Shown here one piece after another: positions 1 through 19,789 of a stretch of 64,000 bases of DNA (its first letter is position 1; each line of letters begins with the position of its first letter). Source of the stretch: a virus (Duplodnaviria > Caudoviricetes); the IMG/VR virus record IMGVR_UViG_3300021387_001666, positions 1-64,000 of that record; one strand, written 5' to 3'. The notes beneath the pieces are model-generated. The model did not search any database. It was given only the letters and a program-made list of their open reading frames with translations, and was not told where the DNA came from. Made by a program: the position numbers and the translations under genes.

Positions 1-596
1 CTTTTTATTCTTGGGATAGTATATTTTTTATAAGACCTACCGCTTAAAAGATAATAAATGGCAGAAGAAGCCATTTTGTATTCTTTACTTATTTTTGGAA
101 CAGACATTCCACTTTCTCTTTTATCAAATATGTCGTTTATTTGCTCTTCAGTTAATGGACTTTGTTGTATAACAGGCGTTGTCAACGCTTTTTCATCACT
201 CAATCCAGCATGTTTTCTTTTATCAATAGTAGAACTATTTATGCCTGTAATTCTACTCCACTCAGCAATAGTATGTGTTTCGCCGTTTAATGTTAATCTA
301 CGGTTATTCTTACTATTGTTATTTTGTTGCAAATAAGAAACCCATCGACAATTATGTGGTTCATAATTTCCATTGGAATCTATCCTATCGAGTGTCATTT
401 TCTCGTTGTAACCATTAGCTAAAGACCAATCCCTGAATTGTACATAGTCATTTTTCCACTCATCACATACTACAATACCTTTACCCATATAATTTTTATA
501 TCCTATAGACTTCGGGTAGTAGCATCGAGCTTTCATGCCACACCAAATTCGGTAAAGCCTTGTTTTTGAGCCATGTTCAAAATATTTTTTGTTCAT
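1..596 (-). CDS. HNH-type homing endonuclease with C-terminal HTH (3' end runs off the window; missing from ORF track)
   Basis: Manual translation from ATG 596: MNKKYFEHGSKTRLYRIWCGMKARCY...VCDEW...TLDRIDSNGNYEPHNCRWVS...QNNN...LTLNGETHTIAEWSRITGI; typical phage HNH family; frame open to base 1. Confidence 0.85.
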   Translation of the reverse strand, partial: MNKKYFEHGSKTRLYRIWCGMKARCYYPKSIGYKNYMGKGIVVCDEWKNDYVQFRDWSLANGYNEKMTLDRIDSNGNYEPHNCRWVSYLQQNNNSKNNRRLTLNGETHTIAEWSRITGINSSTIDKRKHAGLSDEKALTTPVIQQSPLTEEQINDIFDKRESGMSVPKISKEYKMASSAIYYLLSGRSYKKYTIPRIK

Positions 597-609
597 ATTT
601 ATTTTTTTA

Positions 610-678
610 TTACATCCATTCTTCACTACACCCAACCATCATCAAGGCGGTAAGTGCTAATAGGATAATCTTTTTCAT
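610..678 (-). pseudogene. Lipoprotein signal-peptide stub (22 aa)
   Basis: MKKIILLALTALMMVGCSEEWM*; basic N-terminus, hydrophobic core, lipobox VGC, then stop just before HNH gene. Confidence 0.45.
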
Positions 679-871: not shown

Positions 872-1120
872 TTATTGATTACCTTTAAGTTGTTCAATGA
901 ATCCATGAATGTCTGCCATAAGGTCTAACTTGTAAAACTTTTCAGCAGCATTACTACCAAGGTTTAGGTTGGTCATAAACTCTTCTATTTCGTCAAGCAC
1001 ATAGTTTGCGCCTGCTTCAATACCTAACTTGTATGATAGCTGTTCGGAATATCCTACATCACCTTGTTCTTTTCTAAAGGCTGTGGATAACTCTTCGGAC
1101 TTTTCTTTAATACTTTTCAT
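872..1120 (-). CDS. Hypothetical phage protein
   Basis: 82-aa ORF in minus-strand gene block; GIEAGANYVL segment resembles small Bacteroidetes phage proteins. Confidence 0.65.
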   Translation of the reverse strand: MKSIKEKSEELSTAFRKEQGDVGYSEQLSYKLGIEAGANYVLDEIEEFMTNLNLGSNAAEKFYKLDLMADIHGFIEQLKGNQ

Positions 1121-1218: not shown

Positions 1219-1316
1219 TGAAGAATCCCCTCCGCTGAGGGGAAAATAGTAGCAAATGAAAAAATTTTAAAATATGATTATAAAGTGTTGAAGTGACCCT
1301 CACGGGCTTATATTGA

Positions 1317-1820
1317 AAAGTGGCACATGCTGTAGTTAAATGGTTAATTTGATACAGATAGGAAGTCATGAACCACAGCATTTGAGATATGTTGTGCTTT
1401 CAGAGATTCTTGCAAGATATAACATATTACACTTCTAATGAAGCACCCTTTGAGTGATAACCCTTCGTATGTTATAAATCTCTTTCCGCACCCTTCCTTT
1501 ATTCTCACACGGAATAGATACCTCATACCCTTCCTTTGATATGGTAGCATTCTTCATAGAGGTCAGTGCCTAACGGCTCTTCTACTTCTCGCGTACCTAT
1601 TTTTCGCCCTCAAAGCCCTAAATAGCACCTAACAGCACTCCTTGGATTTCTCCGTGGGCTGTTACAGGGGCACTGGTTTGTGCTACATACTGTTGCCCCT
1701 TTTTCTGAGACTAAGAGATTTTGGAAGATACAGACAGTCGCTCACCATAGTAAAGCCCTTAATCATTAGATTCAAATGTCCTATACATCTGCCATGACTG
1801 TCTGTAAACCGTGCCACTTT
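1317..1820 (-). ncRNA. Unassigned ~500-nt large structured RNA upstream of tRNA-Gln
   Basis: Closing 10-bp helix 1811-1820/1317-1326; internal helices 1796-1806/1729-1739, 1713-1721/1476-1484, 1694-1700/1666-1672, 1658-1664/1630-1636, 1371-1381/1327-1337; no credible ORF; promoter and boxA-like element upstream. Confidence 0.7.
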
Positions 1821-1831
1821 ATATGTAAACC

Positions 1832-1867
1832 TGTCAAAGAACTCTCTTGTTTCTTGCCGCAAAGGTA
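1832..1867 (-). promoter_or_regulatory. Bacteroidetes -7 promoter (TACCTTTG, 1860-1867) followed by boxA-like GTTCTTTGACA (1832-1842)
   Basis: Matches TAnnTTTG consensus; boxA-like motif typical of stable-RNA leaders. Confidence 0.7.
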
Positions 1868-5393: not shown

Positions 5394-5667
5394 GTTATTT
5401 GTAATATTTGGGTTTGTTTGGAGAATAAAATGTAATCTAATTACTAAAAACTGGACAAAAAAGATAGATAGCAGGACGTAATAGTTGCAAATATTGAACT
5501 ATAAAGGGCAGTAAAATGTGTAATGTTAAAATTGATAGGTTAAAAGTGTGTAGAGTTGGGAGGCTCCGCAATCCTTTGGGGGAGTGGATATTCCACAATC
5601 TCTACACACATAACTATCTAAGGCACAGACAGTTACAACATATTACTAAGAAGAAAAGCTGAGTGTA

Positions 5668-5982
5668 TTAAACACCCAACTCCACATCTTCCCAAGCATT
5701 TGCACCCTGCTTACAGAGAGAATAGTTGCCACTCTCAAGTTCAACAACCTGGAGAGAGTCCTTCTGCTCTGCAATCTCACGAGGAGACAGCTCTCCCATC
5801 TTGCTAGAGAATGCAACAAAGCAGCGGCTGTTATCCTCAGGATTGGTGAAGATACAGGACTTGAAAGCCTCACCTGTTTCCTTATTGACAAAATCTCCCA
5901 CCTGCATCTTGCCATGAGACTTGGCAAATGCCAGAAGTGACCAACTGTTCTTAATACCTACATTCTGAGCTGTATTAGCCAT
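5668..5982 (-). CDS. Conserved beta-rich protein, paralog A
   Basis: 104 aa, highly similar to 8359-8676 product. Confidence 0.85.
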   Translation of the reverse strand: MANTAQNVGIKNSWSLLAFAKSHGKMQVGDFVNKETGEAFKSCIFTNPEDNSRCFVAFSSKMGELSPREIAEQKDSLQVVELESGNYSLCKQGANAWEDVELGV

Positions 5983-6108
5983 AATGAATTCAGGCCCCTA
6001 ATTGTCCTGTATGTGCTGCAATACTAACATAAACTATCAAGGACAGCAAACCCTATCAAGCCTTTAAAACTATTTGAATTTCACATTAGCATAGCTAACT
6101 GCTACTCT

Positions 6109-10024: not shown

Positions 10025-10106
10025 TAATGGGATGATTTTTAGTTAAATATGAAAAATTGTTCAAGTAGAATTTGGTAATATCAGATATTCTTCGTACCTT
10101 TGCAGG

Positions 10107-10605
10107 CAAACAGGATGCCCATGGTCAGAGGAGACACTACCAAAGACTGGAAGACTGTAAAAGAGTTTTTTGAAATGGCTGAAATATTAGTAACTGTAGG
10201 ATTGCAATCTACCTAGGATAGAGAGGCTCTCGGTCAGATGACACACAACTACCCCCAAGATTCCCACAGGGATGCTGCGAGGTATTTATCCAAGGTCAGA
10301 AAGATTGCCAGTAACAGAAGATGGTTCTGGAAACTATGTACTGTTCAGGGGTTATCGGGGTGAAAATTTCTAAAGGTCTGAAAAGACAAAACCACTGCTA
10401 TAGCAGGAAGGAAGAATAGACTGGTCCAAAAGCTGTATTTCAGTGGAAGTAACACTTCCAACCTTCCCATTAAAGCAGGTTTTTGGGGAGGCCCCCGTAT
10501 GAAAAAGTTCTTCTAGTAGTCTTTTAAGTTTGATAGATTACAGTTACTCTTTAATGCCCGCCTGAAATATGACTTGTTGTAAAATAAGATACTAGCATGG
10601 GAGTT
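10107..10605 (+). ncRNA. ROOL-like large ornate ncRNA
   Basis: ORF-free, between promoter TACCTTTG (10095-10102) and terminator; terminal CCCATG/CATGGG pairing, crossing long-range helices, GNRA-capped hairpins; motifs GGGATGCTGCG, GTAACAGA, TATGTACTG, CCTGAAATATG recall ROOL consensus (from memory, unverified). Confidence 0.75.
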
Positions 10606-10619
10606 AACCCTTGCATTAT

Positions 10620-10665
10620 GAAGTCCCTTCCAAATTTTAGAGCCTCTCGGAAGGGGCTTCTTTTT
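10620..10665 (+). terminator. Intrinsic terminator after ncRNA
   Basis: GAAGTCCCTTCC...GGAAGGGGCTTC-TTTTT. Confidence 0.8.
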
Positions 10666-16327: not shown

Positions 16328-19300
16328 ATGGATAATGTAATATGGAATAAATGTCAGACACCATTGGAGAAGCTGTCTGTGGTGGTTGATAGAGATACAC
16401 CAGATGAGAAGACTGTTATGTTTAAGGACAGCCCTGAGGAGGTACAAGAACAGTTCTGGGACTATGTAAATAACGTGCCATTTATTAAGTGGATGGTTTC
16501 TCCTAACAGACCGATGGTATCAGAGTTACCAAGGGATACTTATGGAAGGGCCATTATAGATGTTACAAAGCCTCCTATACTGGATGGTTCAGACTATTTC
16601 AGACAGACAGCTTTGGAATGGGAAGAAAACAATGGTCAGTATACTCATATAAAGCCTAATGCTAATCCCAACAGTGAGTTTGGTAAGTGGATTAGAGAAG
16701 AAAGAAGAAGGGGTTGGGAAGGATATGTTAATCCAGATACAGGCATGTGGGTAACAGGAGACTATTACTGGACACTCAATTATTGTCCTATGCATCTTGT
16801 TGAGAAGAGAGATGATGGCTTGGAGATGCGTACCACCAAGCATCCTAAGTTCTGGGATGGTCAGTTTCTATCTACCCACTATATTCTTCAGGCAAGGCAG
16901 AGAAAGCACCATGCAGCCTATCTTGCTTCGCGTGGTAAGGGTAAAACCACTGTTGGTGGAGGAATGCTTGCAAAGAGATTTATTATTGGTGAATTTGAAA
17001 ACAATAAGACAGATATACAATGTCTGGTTACTGCTGCTGATAAGACAAAATTAATTGGTGTAAATCAGATTCTTTCAGTATTTATTGATAATATAGACTT
17101 TGCAGCCAAGAATACCCAGTTTGCTTCAAGGAGGCTTAAAAGCAGTTTACAGGAACTCACATGGCAGATGGGCTATAAGAAGTCAGGCAGTGATGTAGCA
17201 TATGGTAGTAAGAATTCTGTGCAGGGAATTATTTCAGGTGTCAATCAGGACAAACTGAATGGTTCTCGTGGTGTCTTATATATCATCGAAGAGGCAGGTA
17301 TCTTCAAAGACCTTAATGACCTATATGGACTTATCAGACCTTCTGTAGAGCAAGGTTCTTCTGTGTTTGGTGAGATATTACTTTATGGAACCGCAGGTAA
17401 TGAGCAATCAGATTTTACAGCCTTTGCAGAAATGTTCTATTCTCCTGACGGCTACAACCTTTATGGTCTGGAGAATGTCTTTGATAAAGAAGGTCAAGGT
17501 AGGAAACAATGCTGTTTTTTCTATCCAGTCTACATGAACTATGATGATAGTTGTATAGATGAGAATGGTAATAGTGATATTACCAAGGCATTGTTTATGA
17601 TACTCATGGATAGATATAAGGTGAAGTATGGCAGTACAGACATTAATGCTATTACCAAGCGTATCTCCCAATACCCCATCACTCCACAAGAGGCTATCAT
17701 CAGAAGTCAGGGAAATGTATTCCCTGTTACAGAGTTGAATAACAGATTAAATCAAATAGATAATAACCCAGATGAATATAGTGATGTGTATGTAGGAGAA
17801 TTAGTACAGCAAAAAGATGGTACTGTAGAGTTTCAGCCTACAGGAGATATACCTATCAGGGAGTTTCCTACTAAAGATAATAAGGTGTTGGGAGCCTTGG
17901 AAATCTATGAGATGCCCCAGAAGAATAGTGAAGGTAAAGTACCTTATGACAGGTATGGTTTTGGCTGTTTGAAGGAAGGTGAAAAAATTAATACGAGTGA
18001 GGGTCTGAAGCCTGTAGAAACTATTACCCTTCAGGATAGTTTGATAGATATAGAAGGAAATGAGGTGGGAATACTTAACCTTCAGAAGTATTACAACGAA
18101 AATCCTGTGTATAAAGTAAAACTGTTTAATGTATATAGTCCAACTGTATTTAGTGAAGAACATCCTATATATTGCTGTACTCCAGAAAAGCATTATAGGA
18201 GTATAGACGTATGCAGGAGAGAAGGACTTCCTGAAAGATATTATTCCTATGATTTTGTCTTTAAGAAAGTAAAAGATTTAAAAGCAGGAGATGTGGTCAA
18301 GTCTCCAAATATTTACAGAAGGACTTATCCTTATATGTGCTATTGGGAGGATAACAATAGGATAGATAAGAAAATAGAAAATCCCCTATCTAAAGAAGGG
18401 TTTTGGTGGTTGCTTGGTCTTATTATTGGTGACGGTTGGGTATCTTGTGACGGGAAATCTGTTCACATTGTGTTCAATCAAAAGGAAGAATACTATATAG
18501 AAAAGGCAGAGCAGATAGTAAAAGAAGTGTTTAACCGTAAGTTTACACTGGTTAAAACGAATCCTGGCTGTGTAGAATTTTGCTTTGGTAGTAAAGTTTT
18601 ATGGGACTTTATAGCTAAATATATAGGCAGAGGGGCGGAGAACAAAAGTCTACCTGAGTGGATGAAAAGGATTCCGCATCATTTGAAAAAACAATTAATA
18701 CTTGGCTATCTTGCCTCCGATGGTAGTATCACCAATAATCAGGCAGAATTTGTGAGTGTCAGTCTGAAATTATTGTGTGATATGCAGGATATACTTTTCT
18801 CATTAGGTATTATCGGTGGGGTCAGCCAAATGAAAAAATATGTTCAAAAAAGTATAGCAGGAAATGATGTCGTAGGGGTTAAAGATAAATATCATTTGAG
18901 AATATCCAAAATAGATACAGCAAAAATATGTGAGTGGGATACTAATGATTTGAAGTTAAAACGCTTTAGTTTAAATAGTATAGAGGAAGAGAAAAGAATT
19001 AATAGAGTTTGGTTCAGTGATGATTTGGAATACATATACTTTAAAGTAGCATCTGTTGAAACAGAAGAATATGTTGGATATGTGTACAACTTTGAGTGTT
19101 TCACCCATACTTTTATGTGTAATTGGATACCTACCCATAATTGTGACCCCTTTGATGATGATGAATCAGGCACTATGTCTCTGGGAAGCCTATTTGTAAT
19201 GGATTTCTGGACAGACAGGCTTGTGGCAGAGTTTACAGGAAGACCCTCATTTGCCAATGAGCTCTATGAAAAGGTAAGACTGCTGTGCTTATTTTATAAT

Positions 19301-19789
19301 ATGAAAGGTCTCTATGAAAATAACTTGAAGGGTATCTTCAGTTATTTCAGCATGAGAAACTGTACCTATATGTTGGCAGATACTCCAGAGTATCTAAGAG
19401 ATAAACAGCTTATTACTTCTATTGGTTATGGCAACAAGTCGAAAGGAGTCAGGGCTACTACACCCATCATCAAAGCAGGTTTTAGAATGATAAGAGACTG
19501 GTTGCTGAAACCAGTTATTCACATAGAACATGATGTAGAAGGAAATGAGATTGAGGTTACTGTACCTAACCTATATAATATAAGGTGTAGAGCCTTGATA
19601 AAGGAGTTAATTCAGTGGAACCAATATGGCAACTTTGATAGAGTGATGGCCTTAGTACAATTGATGCTCTATAGGGAAGAAAAGATGATACTTTATCAGG
19701 GAGATGTGAAGAATGCAGAAAGTGGTGCTTCCGGTATGGAGAAGGATGACTACTTTGAGAAGAACTATCCTGGAAAGAAACGTTGGTAA
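16328..19789 (+). CDS. terL: Terminase large subunit (contains intein)
   Basis: Walker A ASRGKGKT, Walker B YIIEEAG, motif III YGTAG, nuclease G|CDPFDDD and C-terminal GNFDRV. Confidence 0.95.
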   Translation: MDNVIWNKCQTPLEKLSVVVDRDTPDEKTVMFKDSPEEVQEQFWDYVNNVPFIKWMVSPNRPMVSELPRDTYGRAIIDVTKPPILDGSDYFRQTALEWEENNGQYTHIKPNANPNSEFGKWIREERRRGWEGYVNPDTGMWVTGDYYWTLNYCPMHLVEKRDDGLEMRTTKHPKFWDGQFLSTHYILQARQRKHHAAYLASRGKGKTTVGGGMLAKRFIIGEFENNKTDIQCLVTAADKTKLIGVNQILSVFIDNIDFAAKNTQFASRRLKSSLQELTWQMGYKKSGSDVAYGSKNSVQGIISGVNQDKLNGSRGVLYIIEEAGIFKDLNDLYGLIRPSVEQGSSVFGEILLYGTAGNEQSDFTAFAEMFYSPDGYNLYGLENVFDKEGQGRKQCCFFYPVYMNYDDSCIDENGNSDITKALFMILMDRYKVKYGSTDINAITKRISQYPITPQEAIIRSQGNVFPVTELNNRLNQIDNNPDEYSDVYVGELVQQKDGTVEFQPTGDIPIREFPTKDNKVLGALEIYEMPQKNSEGKVPYDRYGFGCLKEGEKINTSEGLKPVETITLQDSLIDIEGNEVGILNLQKYYNENPVYKVKLFNVYSPTVFSEEHPIYCCTPEKHYRSIDVCRREGLPERYYSYDFVFKKVKDLKAGDVVKSPNIYRRTYPYMCYWEDNNRIDKKIENPLSKEGFWWLLGLIIGDGWVSCDGKSVHIVFNQKEEYYIEKAEQIVKEVFNRKFTLVKTNPGCVEFCFGSKVLWDFIAKYIGRGAENKSLPEWMKRIPHHLKKQLILGYLASDGSITNNQAEFVSVSLKLLCDMQDILFSLGIIGGVSQMKKYVQKSIAGNDVVGVKDKYHLRISKIDTAKICEWDTNDLKLKRFSLNSIEEEKRINRVWFSDDLEYIYFKVASVETEEYVGYVYNFECFTHTFMCNWIPTHNCDPFDDDESGTMSLGSLFVMDFWTDRLVAEFTGRPSFANELYEKVRLLCLFYNMKGLYENNLKGIFSYFSMRNCTYMLADTPEYLRDKQLITSIGYGNKSKGVRATTPIIKAGFRMIRDWLLKPVIHIEHDVEGNEIEVTVPNLYNIRCRALIKELIQWNQYGNFDRVMALVQLMLYREEKMILYQGDVKNAESGASGMEKDDYFEKNYPGKKRW
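17966..19141 (+). mobile_element. Intein with LAGLIDADG homing endonuclease (residues 547-938, 392 aa)
   Basis: Starts CLKEGEKI, block B SEEHP, LLGLIIGDG and LGYLASDG motifs, ends YNFEC..THN followed by extein Cys. Confidence 0.95.

Follow-up and report, generated by a model that had tools for sequence, protein, structure and literature searches.

A candidate phage RNA unit on the plan of a host rRNA operon: a boxA leader, a closing helix and a small conserved core in a crAss-like rumen phage

In bacterial ribosomal RNA (rrn) operons, boxA RNA binds NusB-S10 and nucleates an antitermination complex that makes the polymerase Rho-resistant on untranslated RNA, and this complex keeps the leader strand near the exit channel, which aids the leader-trailer helix (PMC10250234). 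Here we describe a phage unit that resembles such an operon: an RNA without a credible open reading frame (ORF), preceded by a boxA leader and followed by a tRNA-Gln gene. The unit lies in the first 64 kb of the 108-kb IMG/VR virus record IMGVR_UViG_3300021387_001666, and this whole stretch of 64,000 nucleotides is called the window below. Among phage systems, lambdoid nut sites (boxA and a boxB hairpin, with N and Nus factors) likewise put a phage boxA into the phage's own transcript to obtain a termination-resistant host polymerase. The species 1 and 2 RNAs of T4 (rnaC, rnaD) are small stable RNAs co-transcribed with phage tRNAs and released by tRNA-processing enzymes. GOLLD and ROOL, which share with the window RNA that they are phage-borne, next to a tRNA and, for ROOL, of rumen origin, form homo-oligomers (PMC12286853). 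Phages have few large structured RNAs, and for none of these is the function known; the window RNA offers a testable handle on how one is made.

That the window phage is a crAss-like phage of a Bacteroidota host follows from its major capsid protein, which has 55-58% identity to the capsid proteins of IAS virus, uncultured 'cr' phages and Bacteroides crAss-like phages. The window phage is a rumen phage, and its nearest relatives stem from the same metagenome set. The whole unit is encoded on the minus strand of the window and is framed by the following elements:

1860..1867, minus strand, promoter -7 box TACCTTTG of the Bacteroidota TAnnTTTG type, read from the sequence; predicted transcription start about 7 nt downstream
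1820..1842, minus strand, rrn-type leader GTTCTTTGACAGGTTTACATATA, 23 nt, with the boxA 12-mer GTTCTTTGACAG at 1842-1831 and then a spacer ending in CATATA
1811..1820, minus strand, 5' strand of helix P1, AAAGUGGCAC, at the position of the leader strand in a leader-trailer helix
1317..1326, minus strand, 3' (trailer) strand of P1, GUGCCACUUU, the same sequence in the relatives L076 and L220
1147..1218, minus strand, tRNA-Gln (anticodon UUG), called by ARAGORN, 62.1 bits with the Rfam tRNA model, 98 nt downstream of the RNA

TAnnTTTG is the Bacteroidota promoter -7 consensus. An earlier, sequence-only reading of this DNA had listed a promoter, a boxA-like element, a 10-bp closing helix, inner helices of 7-11 bp and tRNA-Gln, and all of them are present on the minus strand; the unit is non-coding and sits on the tRNA strand, with a host-type promoter ahead of it. 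The closing helix is a perfect 10-bp inverted pair, AAAGTGGCAC (1820-1811) with GTGCCACTTT (1326-1317), which encloses 484 ORF-free bases, giving an RNA of 504 nt in all. The layout suggests that the RNA and tRNA-Gln are made on one transcript.

The 23-nt leader is present in a single copy in the window and in the 108-kb genome, and it recurs at the syntenic place in a complete relative, G002, with 74% capsid identity. Scanning public metagenome contigs with the degenerate motif GTTCTTTGAnAGnTTTnCATATA resulted in 23 stretches, most of which share the rRNA-operon flanks of one or two bacterial lineages, some large contigs having several copies. Rfam placed 16S rRNA 96-192 nt downstream of the motif in five of the ten stretches checked (L079, L082, L088, L089 and L091), and the same TACCTTTG box stands upstream of the host rrn leaders in L088, L079 and L091. 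The phage leader is identical to the bacterial rRNA-operon leader at 21 of 23 positions, which makes the earlier boxA-like call not only correct but stronger. Duplex prediction on two host operons, from two host lineages, paired the leader bases from CAUAU onward with the 16S trailer, and in all four phage loci the bases directly past CAUAUA are predicted to pair with the far end of the RNA. Judged by sequence, the leader is a genuine rrn boxA leader that nearly copies the host form, and the succession of promoter, boxA, leader-trailer helix, product and tRNA therefore follows the plan of rrn operons. In addition, the match of the leader may give a clue to the host. Searched alone by blastn against 50,697 GenBank phages, the leader gave chance matches only, and a relaxed leader pattern gave about 90 matches, nearly all within genes.

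The likeness to rrn operons extends to the -7 box, the 21 shared leader bases, a long-range helix a few bases past boxA that closes around the product, and the tRNA after it (PMC10250234). The enclosed phage RNA is, however, not rRNA, and the phage helix has 10 bp versus 25-40 bp in rrn. The tRNAs to be expected in an rrn spacer are Ile/Ala, whereas the phage unit has a phage-encoded tRNA-Gln with protein genes after it. A decayed 16S gene was considered and rejected, as neither the region nor the genome had any match to small-subunit or large-subunit rRNA and no blastn similarity to host operons was found past the leader. Unlike lambdoid nut sites, the window boxA copies the host rrn consensus, a long-range closing helix takes the place of the 15-nt boxB hairpin, and the product is a non-coding RNA (ncRNA) plus a tRNA. 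The T4 RNAs are similar in being small and beside phage tRNAs but belong to unrelated hosts and phage groups, and we know of no rrn-type leader in T4. In the window no hairpin can be read between boxA and P1, and L076 and another locus, L207, have a conserved hairpin upstream of boxA. A hairpin CCUCCGACAYUYGUGARARCGGUARGAGG followed by a U-run is kept at L076:2215-2243, L207 ~1770-1800 and L208:272-300 (minus strand), where it sits between promoter and tRNA-Gln and resembles a terminator or attenuator ahead of boxA.

We propose that the locus is a phage-built ncRNA transcription unit on the host rRNA-operon plan, with a new small family of phage RNAs that would be transcribed and closed like an rRNA precursor and a released RNA that would act in trans. 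We give this reading a probability of roughly 0.55, and within it the boxA identity and the homologous core described below are much firmer than the step to a stable trans-acting RNA. Host RNA polymerase would start at the -7 box, and boxA would recruit NusB/S10 and the other rrn antitermination factors, so that the long untranslated stretch (~0.3-0.7 kb) would be transcribed without Rho termination. The 5' strand of P1 would be kept close to the RNA exit channel until the 3' strand has come out, and the ends would pair like the 16S leader-trailer helix. RNase P, by cutting at the 5' end of the tRNA, would define the 3' side, and this cut, possibly along with one by RNase III at P1, would release a stable RNA of ~0.2-0.65 kb. 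This RNA would act in trans, probably via an invariant linker and a palindromic bulge, as a protein-binding or self-pairing (dimerising) site. The leader near-copy predicts NusB/S10 dependence, Rho resistance, and end-to-end pairing aided by the antitermination complex.

The homologous core was recognized in three relative lineages, all of them uncultured phages. The first, L076/L077/L101, is one phage type from two IMG/VR samples with an RNA of 214 nt, in which the leader is followed by AAAGUGGUGC ... GUGCCACUUU enclosing 194 nt, with tRNA-Gln 5 nt later. The second, L220, is a 72-kb contig reached via a 63% homolog of the 82-aa gene that follows the window tRNA; it has a TAAATTTG promoter, boxA, UAAGUGGCAC ... 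GUGCCACUUU (229 nt), the same two small hairpins as the window and an atypical tRNA. The third and distant one, G002, has boxA and then an ORF-free RNA of 652 nt enclosed by GGAUGCGG ... CCGCAUCC; it lacks both a tRNA and a promoter of its own and, by sequence, has only the leader in common with the window. The tRNA follows the RNA in three of the four lineages, and then come early protein genes. Homologs of the RNA occur next to proteins without relation to those of the window phage, and also in L220; for the proteins flanking the L076 RNA no similarity to the window phage's proteins was detectable. The inner parts of the window RNA are, in order of transcription:

1484..1810, minus strand, extra 5' domain of 327 nt with several hairpins, in the window phage only; in the short homologs P1 and P3 are 15 nt apart
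1488..1491, minus strand, 5' strand of P2, GUGC, tentative
1477..1483, minus strand, 5' strand of P3, AGAGAUU, a 7-bp helix
1409..1416, minus strand, 8-nt palindrome CUUGCAAG, an unpaired bulge immediately 5' of the P3 3' strand, invariant in the window, L076, L220 and G002
1402..1408, minus strand, 3' strand of P3, AAUCUCU
1394..1397, minus strand, 3' strand of P2, GCAC, tentative
1382..1393, minus strand, single-stranded linker AACAUAUCUCAA, conserved, within block 1416-1375
1375..1381, minus strand, 5' strand of P4, AUGCUGU
1327..1333, minus strand, 3' strand of P4, ACAGCAU, abutting P1

The window, L076 and L220 align at five places, namely the leader with P1, P3, the palindrome, the linker and P4, and the shared blocks of the relatives are 93-97% identical with unalignable sequence between them. 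Block 1416-1375 is identical to L076 at 38 of 41 positions, and 31 of its 42 columns are identical across the window, L076 and L220; the linker in the window reads GAAAGCAC-AACAUAUCUCAA. P1 of L076 carries two changes, both of them to G-U pairs, which fits pairing in the RNA of this strand only. On the alignment of these sequences (A5), 95% of the P3 and P4 cells are paired, compared with 27-57% when the partner is slid by 1-3 columns, and RNAalifold recovers P3 and P4 unprompted. G002 has UGGAAUU ... CUUGCAAG-AGUUCCA, which is P3 with the same bulge and adds two more double changes, so that across the four sequences three of the seven P3 pairs change on both sides and remain paired. A U-A pair of P4 in the window is C-G in L076 and L220. 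The putative P2 takes the forms GUGC/GCAC in the window, GUG/UAC in L076 and GUGU/ACAC in L220, and a 4-bp P2 would account for two variable positions of the linker. A candidate pseudoknot of the linker with GURC inside P3 was abandoned, since the pairing partner does not occupy homologous positions in the three sequences, and homology of the 5' domains of the window and G002 is not claimed because their shared short strings are not colinear. No complementarity beyond chance was seen between the conserved block and host rRNA or the tRNA of the unit.

These comparisons also bear on the idea that the phage captured an rrn leader and trailer just to express its tRNA strongly, the interior being drifting and expanding filler with a few processing blocks. 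Such filler would be expected to vary in length, and the boxA-tRNA interval does range from ~70 to ~600 nt; L208 consists of the promoter, the leader hairpin and tRNA-Gln with nothing between, and the window RNA adds 327 nt without a counterpart and an ordinary folding energy. However, the 42-nt block and P1 are 74-97% identical between phages without detectable protein homology around the locus while the flanks are unalignable, base pairs change on both sides, and G002 keeps boxA, P1 and P3 with its bulge yet has no tRNA. We regard this explanation as unlikely.

P1, P3 and P4 are all present in the unconstrained minimum-energy fold of the window RNA. Inside P1 there are additional perfect pairs of 11 bp (1806-1796/1739-1729), 9 bp (1476-1468/1426-1418) and 7 bp (1483-1477/1408-1402 and 1664-1658/1636-1630), as well as an imperfect 14-nt pair, 86% complementary (1384-1371/1337-1324), the core of which is P4. 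The helix of ~240 nt span given by the sequence-only reading exists as a 9-bp pair over 228 nt (1721-1713/1484-1476). It pairs the P3 5' strand AGAGAUU with a second AAUCUCU in the lineage-specific domain and so competes with the conserved P3; because it uses the same strand, we take it for an alternative pairing or chance. The window RNA is thus a core of ~180 nt with a lineage-specific expansion, and the 'ornate ~500 nt' of the earlier description holds with 504 nt for the window phage only, as 327 of the 504 nt are absent elsewhere. Neither the remainder of the genome nor 1.5 Mb of fetched loci contained a second copy of the 327-nt domain. GC content reaches 0.475 in the region 1810-1484 against a background of ~0.33. 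A second local GC peak (0.44-0.475) at window 5600-6000 is probably coding, because it overlaps minus-strand ORFs of 93-104 aa.

Several results speak against the proposed RNA family or limit it. The folding energy of the window RNA is ordinary (z = -1.59, with 7 of 100 shuffles folding as well), and so is that of L076 (z = -1.30); the values for L220 and G002 are -3.19 and -3.43. As the folding energy is unremarkable, the weight of the observation must come from the comparison with other sequences. The three double-sided changes on A5 were equalled by 26 of 500 shuffles, which is suggestive but not proof. The pairing has blemishes: in L220, P4 contains a U-U and P3 ends with an A-C, and in L076 P2 contains an A-G. 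P2 is tentative because the P1 3' strand is an equally good partner. The boxA-tRNA distance, from ~70 nt in L207 to ~600 nt, and the 327 nt without counterpart mean that much of the RNA is unconstrained. P1, with 10 bp, is short for RNase III. The family consists of three clear members and a distant one, and in G002 only P1 and P3 with its bulge are seen. A covariance model (R1) run over 50 crAss-like records returned only its source record, so the family is absent from the other 49, and among these is one of the two complete relatives that were compared closely. By our own estimate, chance would give ~0.14 perfect 10-bp inverted pairs per 550 nt; the closing helix and two inner helices are lifted above chance because the homologs keep them.

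With respect to coding capacity, the absence of a credible ORF was confirmed on the strand of the RNA. The longest minus-strand frames have 59-70 aa, one of them running into the tRNA; the small ORFs had no Pfam match and a single sub-threshold PHROG match (E 0.027). A protein-coding gene, read in a changed genetic code or as small ORFs, seems barely credible to us. Reading TAG as Gln does open one minus-strand frame for 130 codons. This frame, however, lacks a plausible start and any Pfam or PHROG match, the phage encodes no suppressor tRNA, the standard code keeps its long genes open, and the small ORFs are not kept in L076 or L220. Moreover, the gene caller on an identical contig from a sheep sample placed no gene on the minus strand across the stretch.

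Searches against described RNA families were similarly empty. In the window, no GOLLD, ROOL, 6S, riboswitch, T-box or group I/II model reached its gathering score, and none of 4227 Rfam models matched positions 1100-2100 at E up to 10; for the RNAs of L076, G002 and L220 Rfam gave no family either. Recognisable GOLLD, ROOL, tmRNA, RNase P, 6S RNA, introns and riboswitches are therefore excluded, and the earlier remark that signatures of tmRNA, RNase P and group II introns are missing agrees with the Rfam check and with ARAGORN. The other suggestion of the sequence-only reading, a divergent GOLLD or ROOL, did not hold, as there is no model match and the conserved core has only ~215-230 nt. Its alternative, a new class, fits so far, with no Rfam 15 match at E up to 10 and few homologs that keep a common core. 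That the RNA is a very divergent GOLLD/ROOL or another catalogued RNA (tmRNA, RNase P, 6S, group I/II intron) is in our view very improbable. It does sit beside a tRNA in a phage from a rumen sample, as ROOL and GOLLD often do (PMC12286853). Against this stand the 4227 models without a match in the 1-kb region at E up to 10, no tmRNA by ARAGORN and a core of 214-229 nt. The conserved core of ~220 nt compares with ~580-800 nt in GOLLD and ROOL and is without a covariance-model match. To our knowledge, an rrn-type leader is not a described feature of either RNA. A point of likeness is that the unpaired palindromic motif of the window RNA could support self-association.

On this motif one could build a more specific version of the proposed trans-acting RNA. 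The phage would use the rRNA antitermination complex as a folding chaperone for an abundant RNA that pairs with itself via CUUGCAAG, and the role in trans would be to soak up a host factor (e.g. a Nus, rRNA/tRNA-processing or defence protein) or to form an RNA-only assembly like ROOL/GOLLD. We consider this version doubtful and offer it as speculation; were it true, it would point to a general strategy, without a description in the literature searched, in which phages disguise their own RNAs as precursors of ribosomal RNA.

The stretch between the RNA and the first genes raises a further question, whether the RNA is released at all. It contains:

1296..1313, minus strand, conserved AUAUAAGCCCGUGAGGGU, hairpin GCCC-GUGA-GGGU and then a U-rich stretch; 18 of 18 positions identical in L220
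1227..1242, minus strand, hairpin CCCCUC-AGCG-GAGGGG, 8 nt ahead of the tRNA
872..1120, minus strand, first protein gene of the unit, 82 aa, no family, 27 nt past tRNA-Gln with no terminator between

The AUAUAAGCCCGUGAGGGU hairpin is common to three phages, with two copies in L222, a phage without the boxA RNA, and a U-run often follows it. It may be a weak terminator or a processing signal; a terminator scan called nothing at 1296-1313, nor between the unit and the downstream genes. Hairpins with an AGCG loop precede tRNAs in four phages (the window, L220 ~2080-2100, L222 ~1810-1830 and L207 ~1838-1854). Their stems differ fully yet are complementary (CCCCUC/GAGGGG, GCCUCAC/GUGGGGC, UCUCUC/GAGAGA and CCUCUU/AAGAGAG), and this hairpin may be a processing or protein-binding signal. 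The homolog of the 82-aa gene in L220 (P0134, 63% identical) lies downstream of the RNA in the same layout, with a 90-aa gene intervening. Two tRNA-like genes with an insertion of ~20 nt were also noticed, at L220:2109-2202 (94 nt, 30.8 bits with the Rfam tRNA model) and L222 ~1870-1970; ARAGORN calls neither, their anticodon-region sequence contains CUA, and they could be intron-containing or suppressor tRNAs. The idea of a Gln-codon (CAA) 'specifier' was dropped, as no more than 3-5 nt support it and the 94-nt tRNA-like sequence of L220 is not among the ARAGORN calls.

The RNA might instead be a cis-acting leader, the core of which senses a signal or binds a factor and controls whether transcription passes the weak terminator-like hairpin region (1313-1250) to reach the tRNA and early genes, in the manner of riboswitches, nut/put sites and EAR. 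In the window, L076 and L220 the RNA indeed sits between the promoter and the first genes of the operon, other partners are available to the P1 3' strand (the linker GAAAGCAC and, 82 nt downstream in L220, a second AGUGGCAC copy), the hairpin with its U-rich stretch is conserved past P1 in the window and L220, and boxA is itself a cis-acting antitermination signal. However, no riboswitch, T-box or leader family matched, in L076 an expression platform would not fit, as the tRNA starts 5 nt past P1, the RNA of G002 comes with neither a tRNA nor its own promoter, the terminator scan was empty, and 214-652 nt is large for a sensor. On balance we hold a cis-acting leader to be less probable than a released RNA, though it deserves to be taken seriously.

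Regarding its distribution, the RNA is rare, a sporadic insert in an untranslated leader. In L205 and L206, close relatives of the L076 phage without the RNA, the same promoter stands directly ahead of a protein gene, and the RNA with its tRNA is therefore inserted into untranslated leader sequence, a place at which the transcript would need to be protected from Rho. L207 and L208 have the promoter, the leader hairpin and tRNA-Gln with a short spacer or none, and the complete relative G001 has nothing at the syntenic place. Synteny walks from the neighbouring proteins led mostly to loci without the RNA (L205, L206, L209-L219 and L222-L224) and yielded L207 and L220. Across IMG/VR, pattern scans with the leader, with the conserved block and with a relaxed form of this block found L076/L077 and G002 and nothing else. 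The block pattern had two chance matches only, both in coding regions, over 185,579 species genomes, and blastn of the window, L076 and G002 RNAs against the 50,697 GenBank phages gave no match. A weak repeated match of model R1 in L229/L231/L232 falls inside a 796-aa ORF and was rejected.

A literature search found no paper linking boxA with crAss-like phages or phage-encoded tRNAs. What is new here is the crAss-like setting, and that the helix closes around a dedicated conserved RNA with the tRNA left outside, rather than around a tRNA array. If the predicted NusB/S10 dependence, Rho resistance and aided end-to-end pairing hold, phages use boxA not only for lambda-type antitermination of protein genes but also for making stable RNA, and such use reaches beyond Proteobacteria to Bacteroidota and to the crAss-like phages, the dominant ones in gut and rumen viromes.

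Some further observations were made along the way. At window 10165 (plus strand), GTTTTTTGAAA has one mismatch to the boxA core and lies inside a candidate RNA (10095-10665), for which the whole-window scan gave no Rfam family at gathering score. L218, a phage with a homolog of the 82-aa gene, has at 650-1181 a gene-free, hairpin-rich-looking stretch of 530 nt behind a TATCTTTG promoter, without boxA and without a tRNA. An HNH endonuclease gene (window 3-635, minus strand; PHROG 3377, E 9e-57) lies three genes downstream of the tRNA and runs off the start of the contig. The large terminase ORF (window 16328-19789, plus strand, 1153 aa) has its terminase match at residues 63-546; outside them the matches are to endonuclease and ribonucleotide-reductase-like PHROGs, suggestive of an intein or of a homing-endonuclease module fused to the protein.

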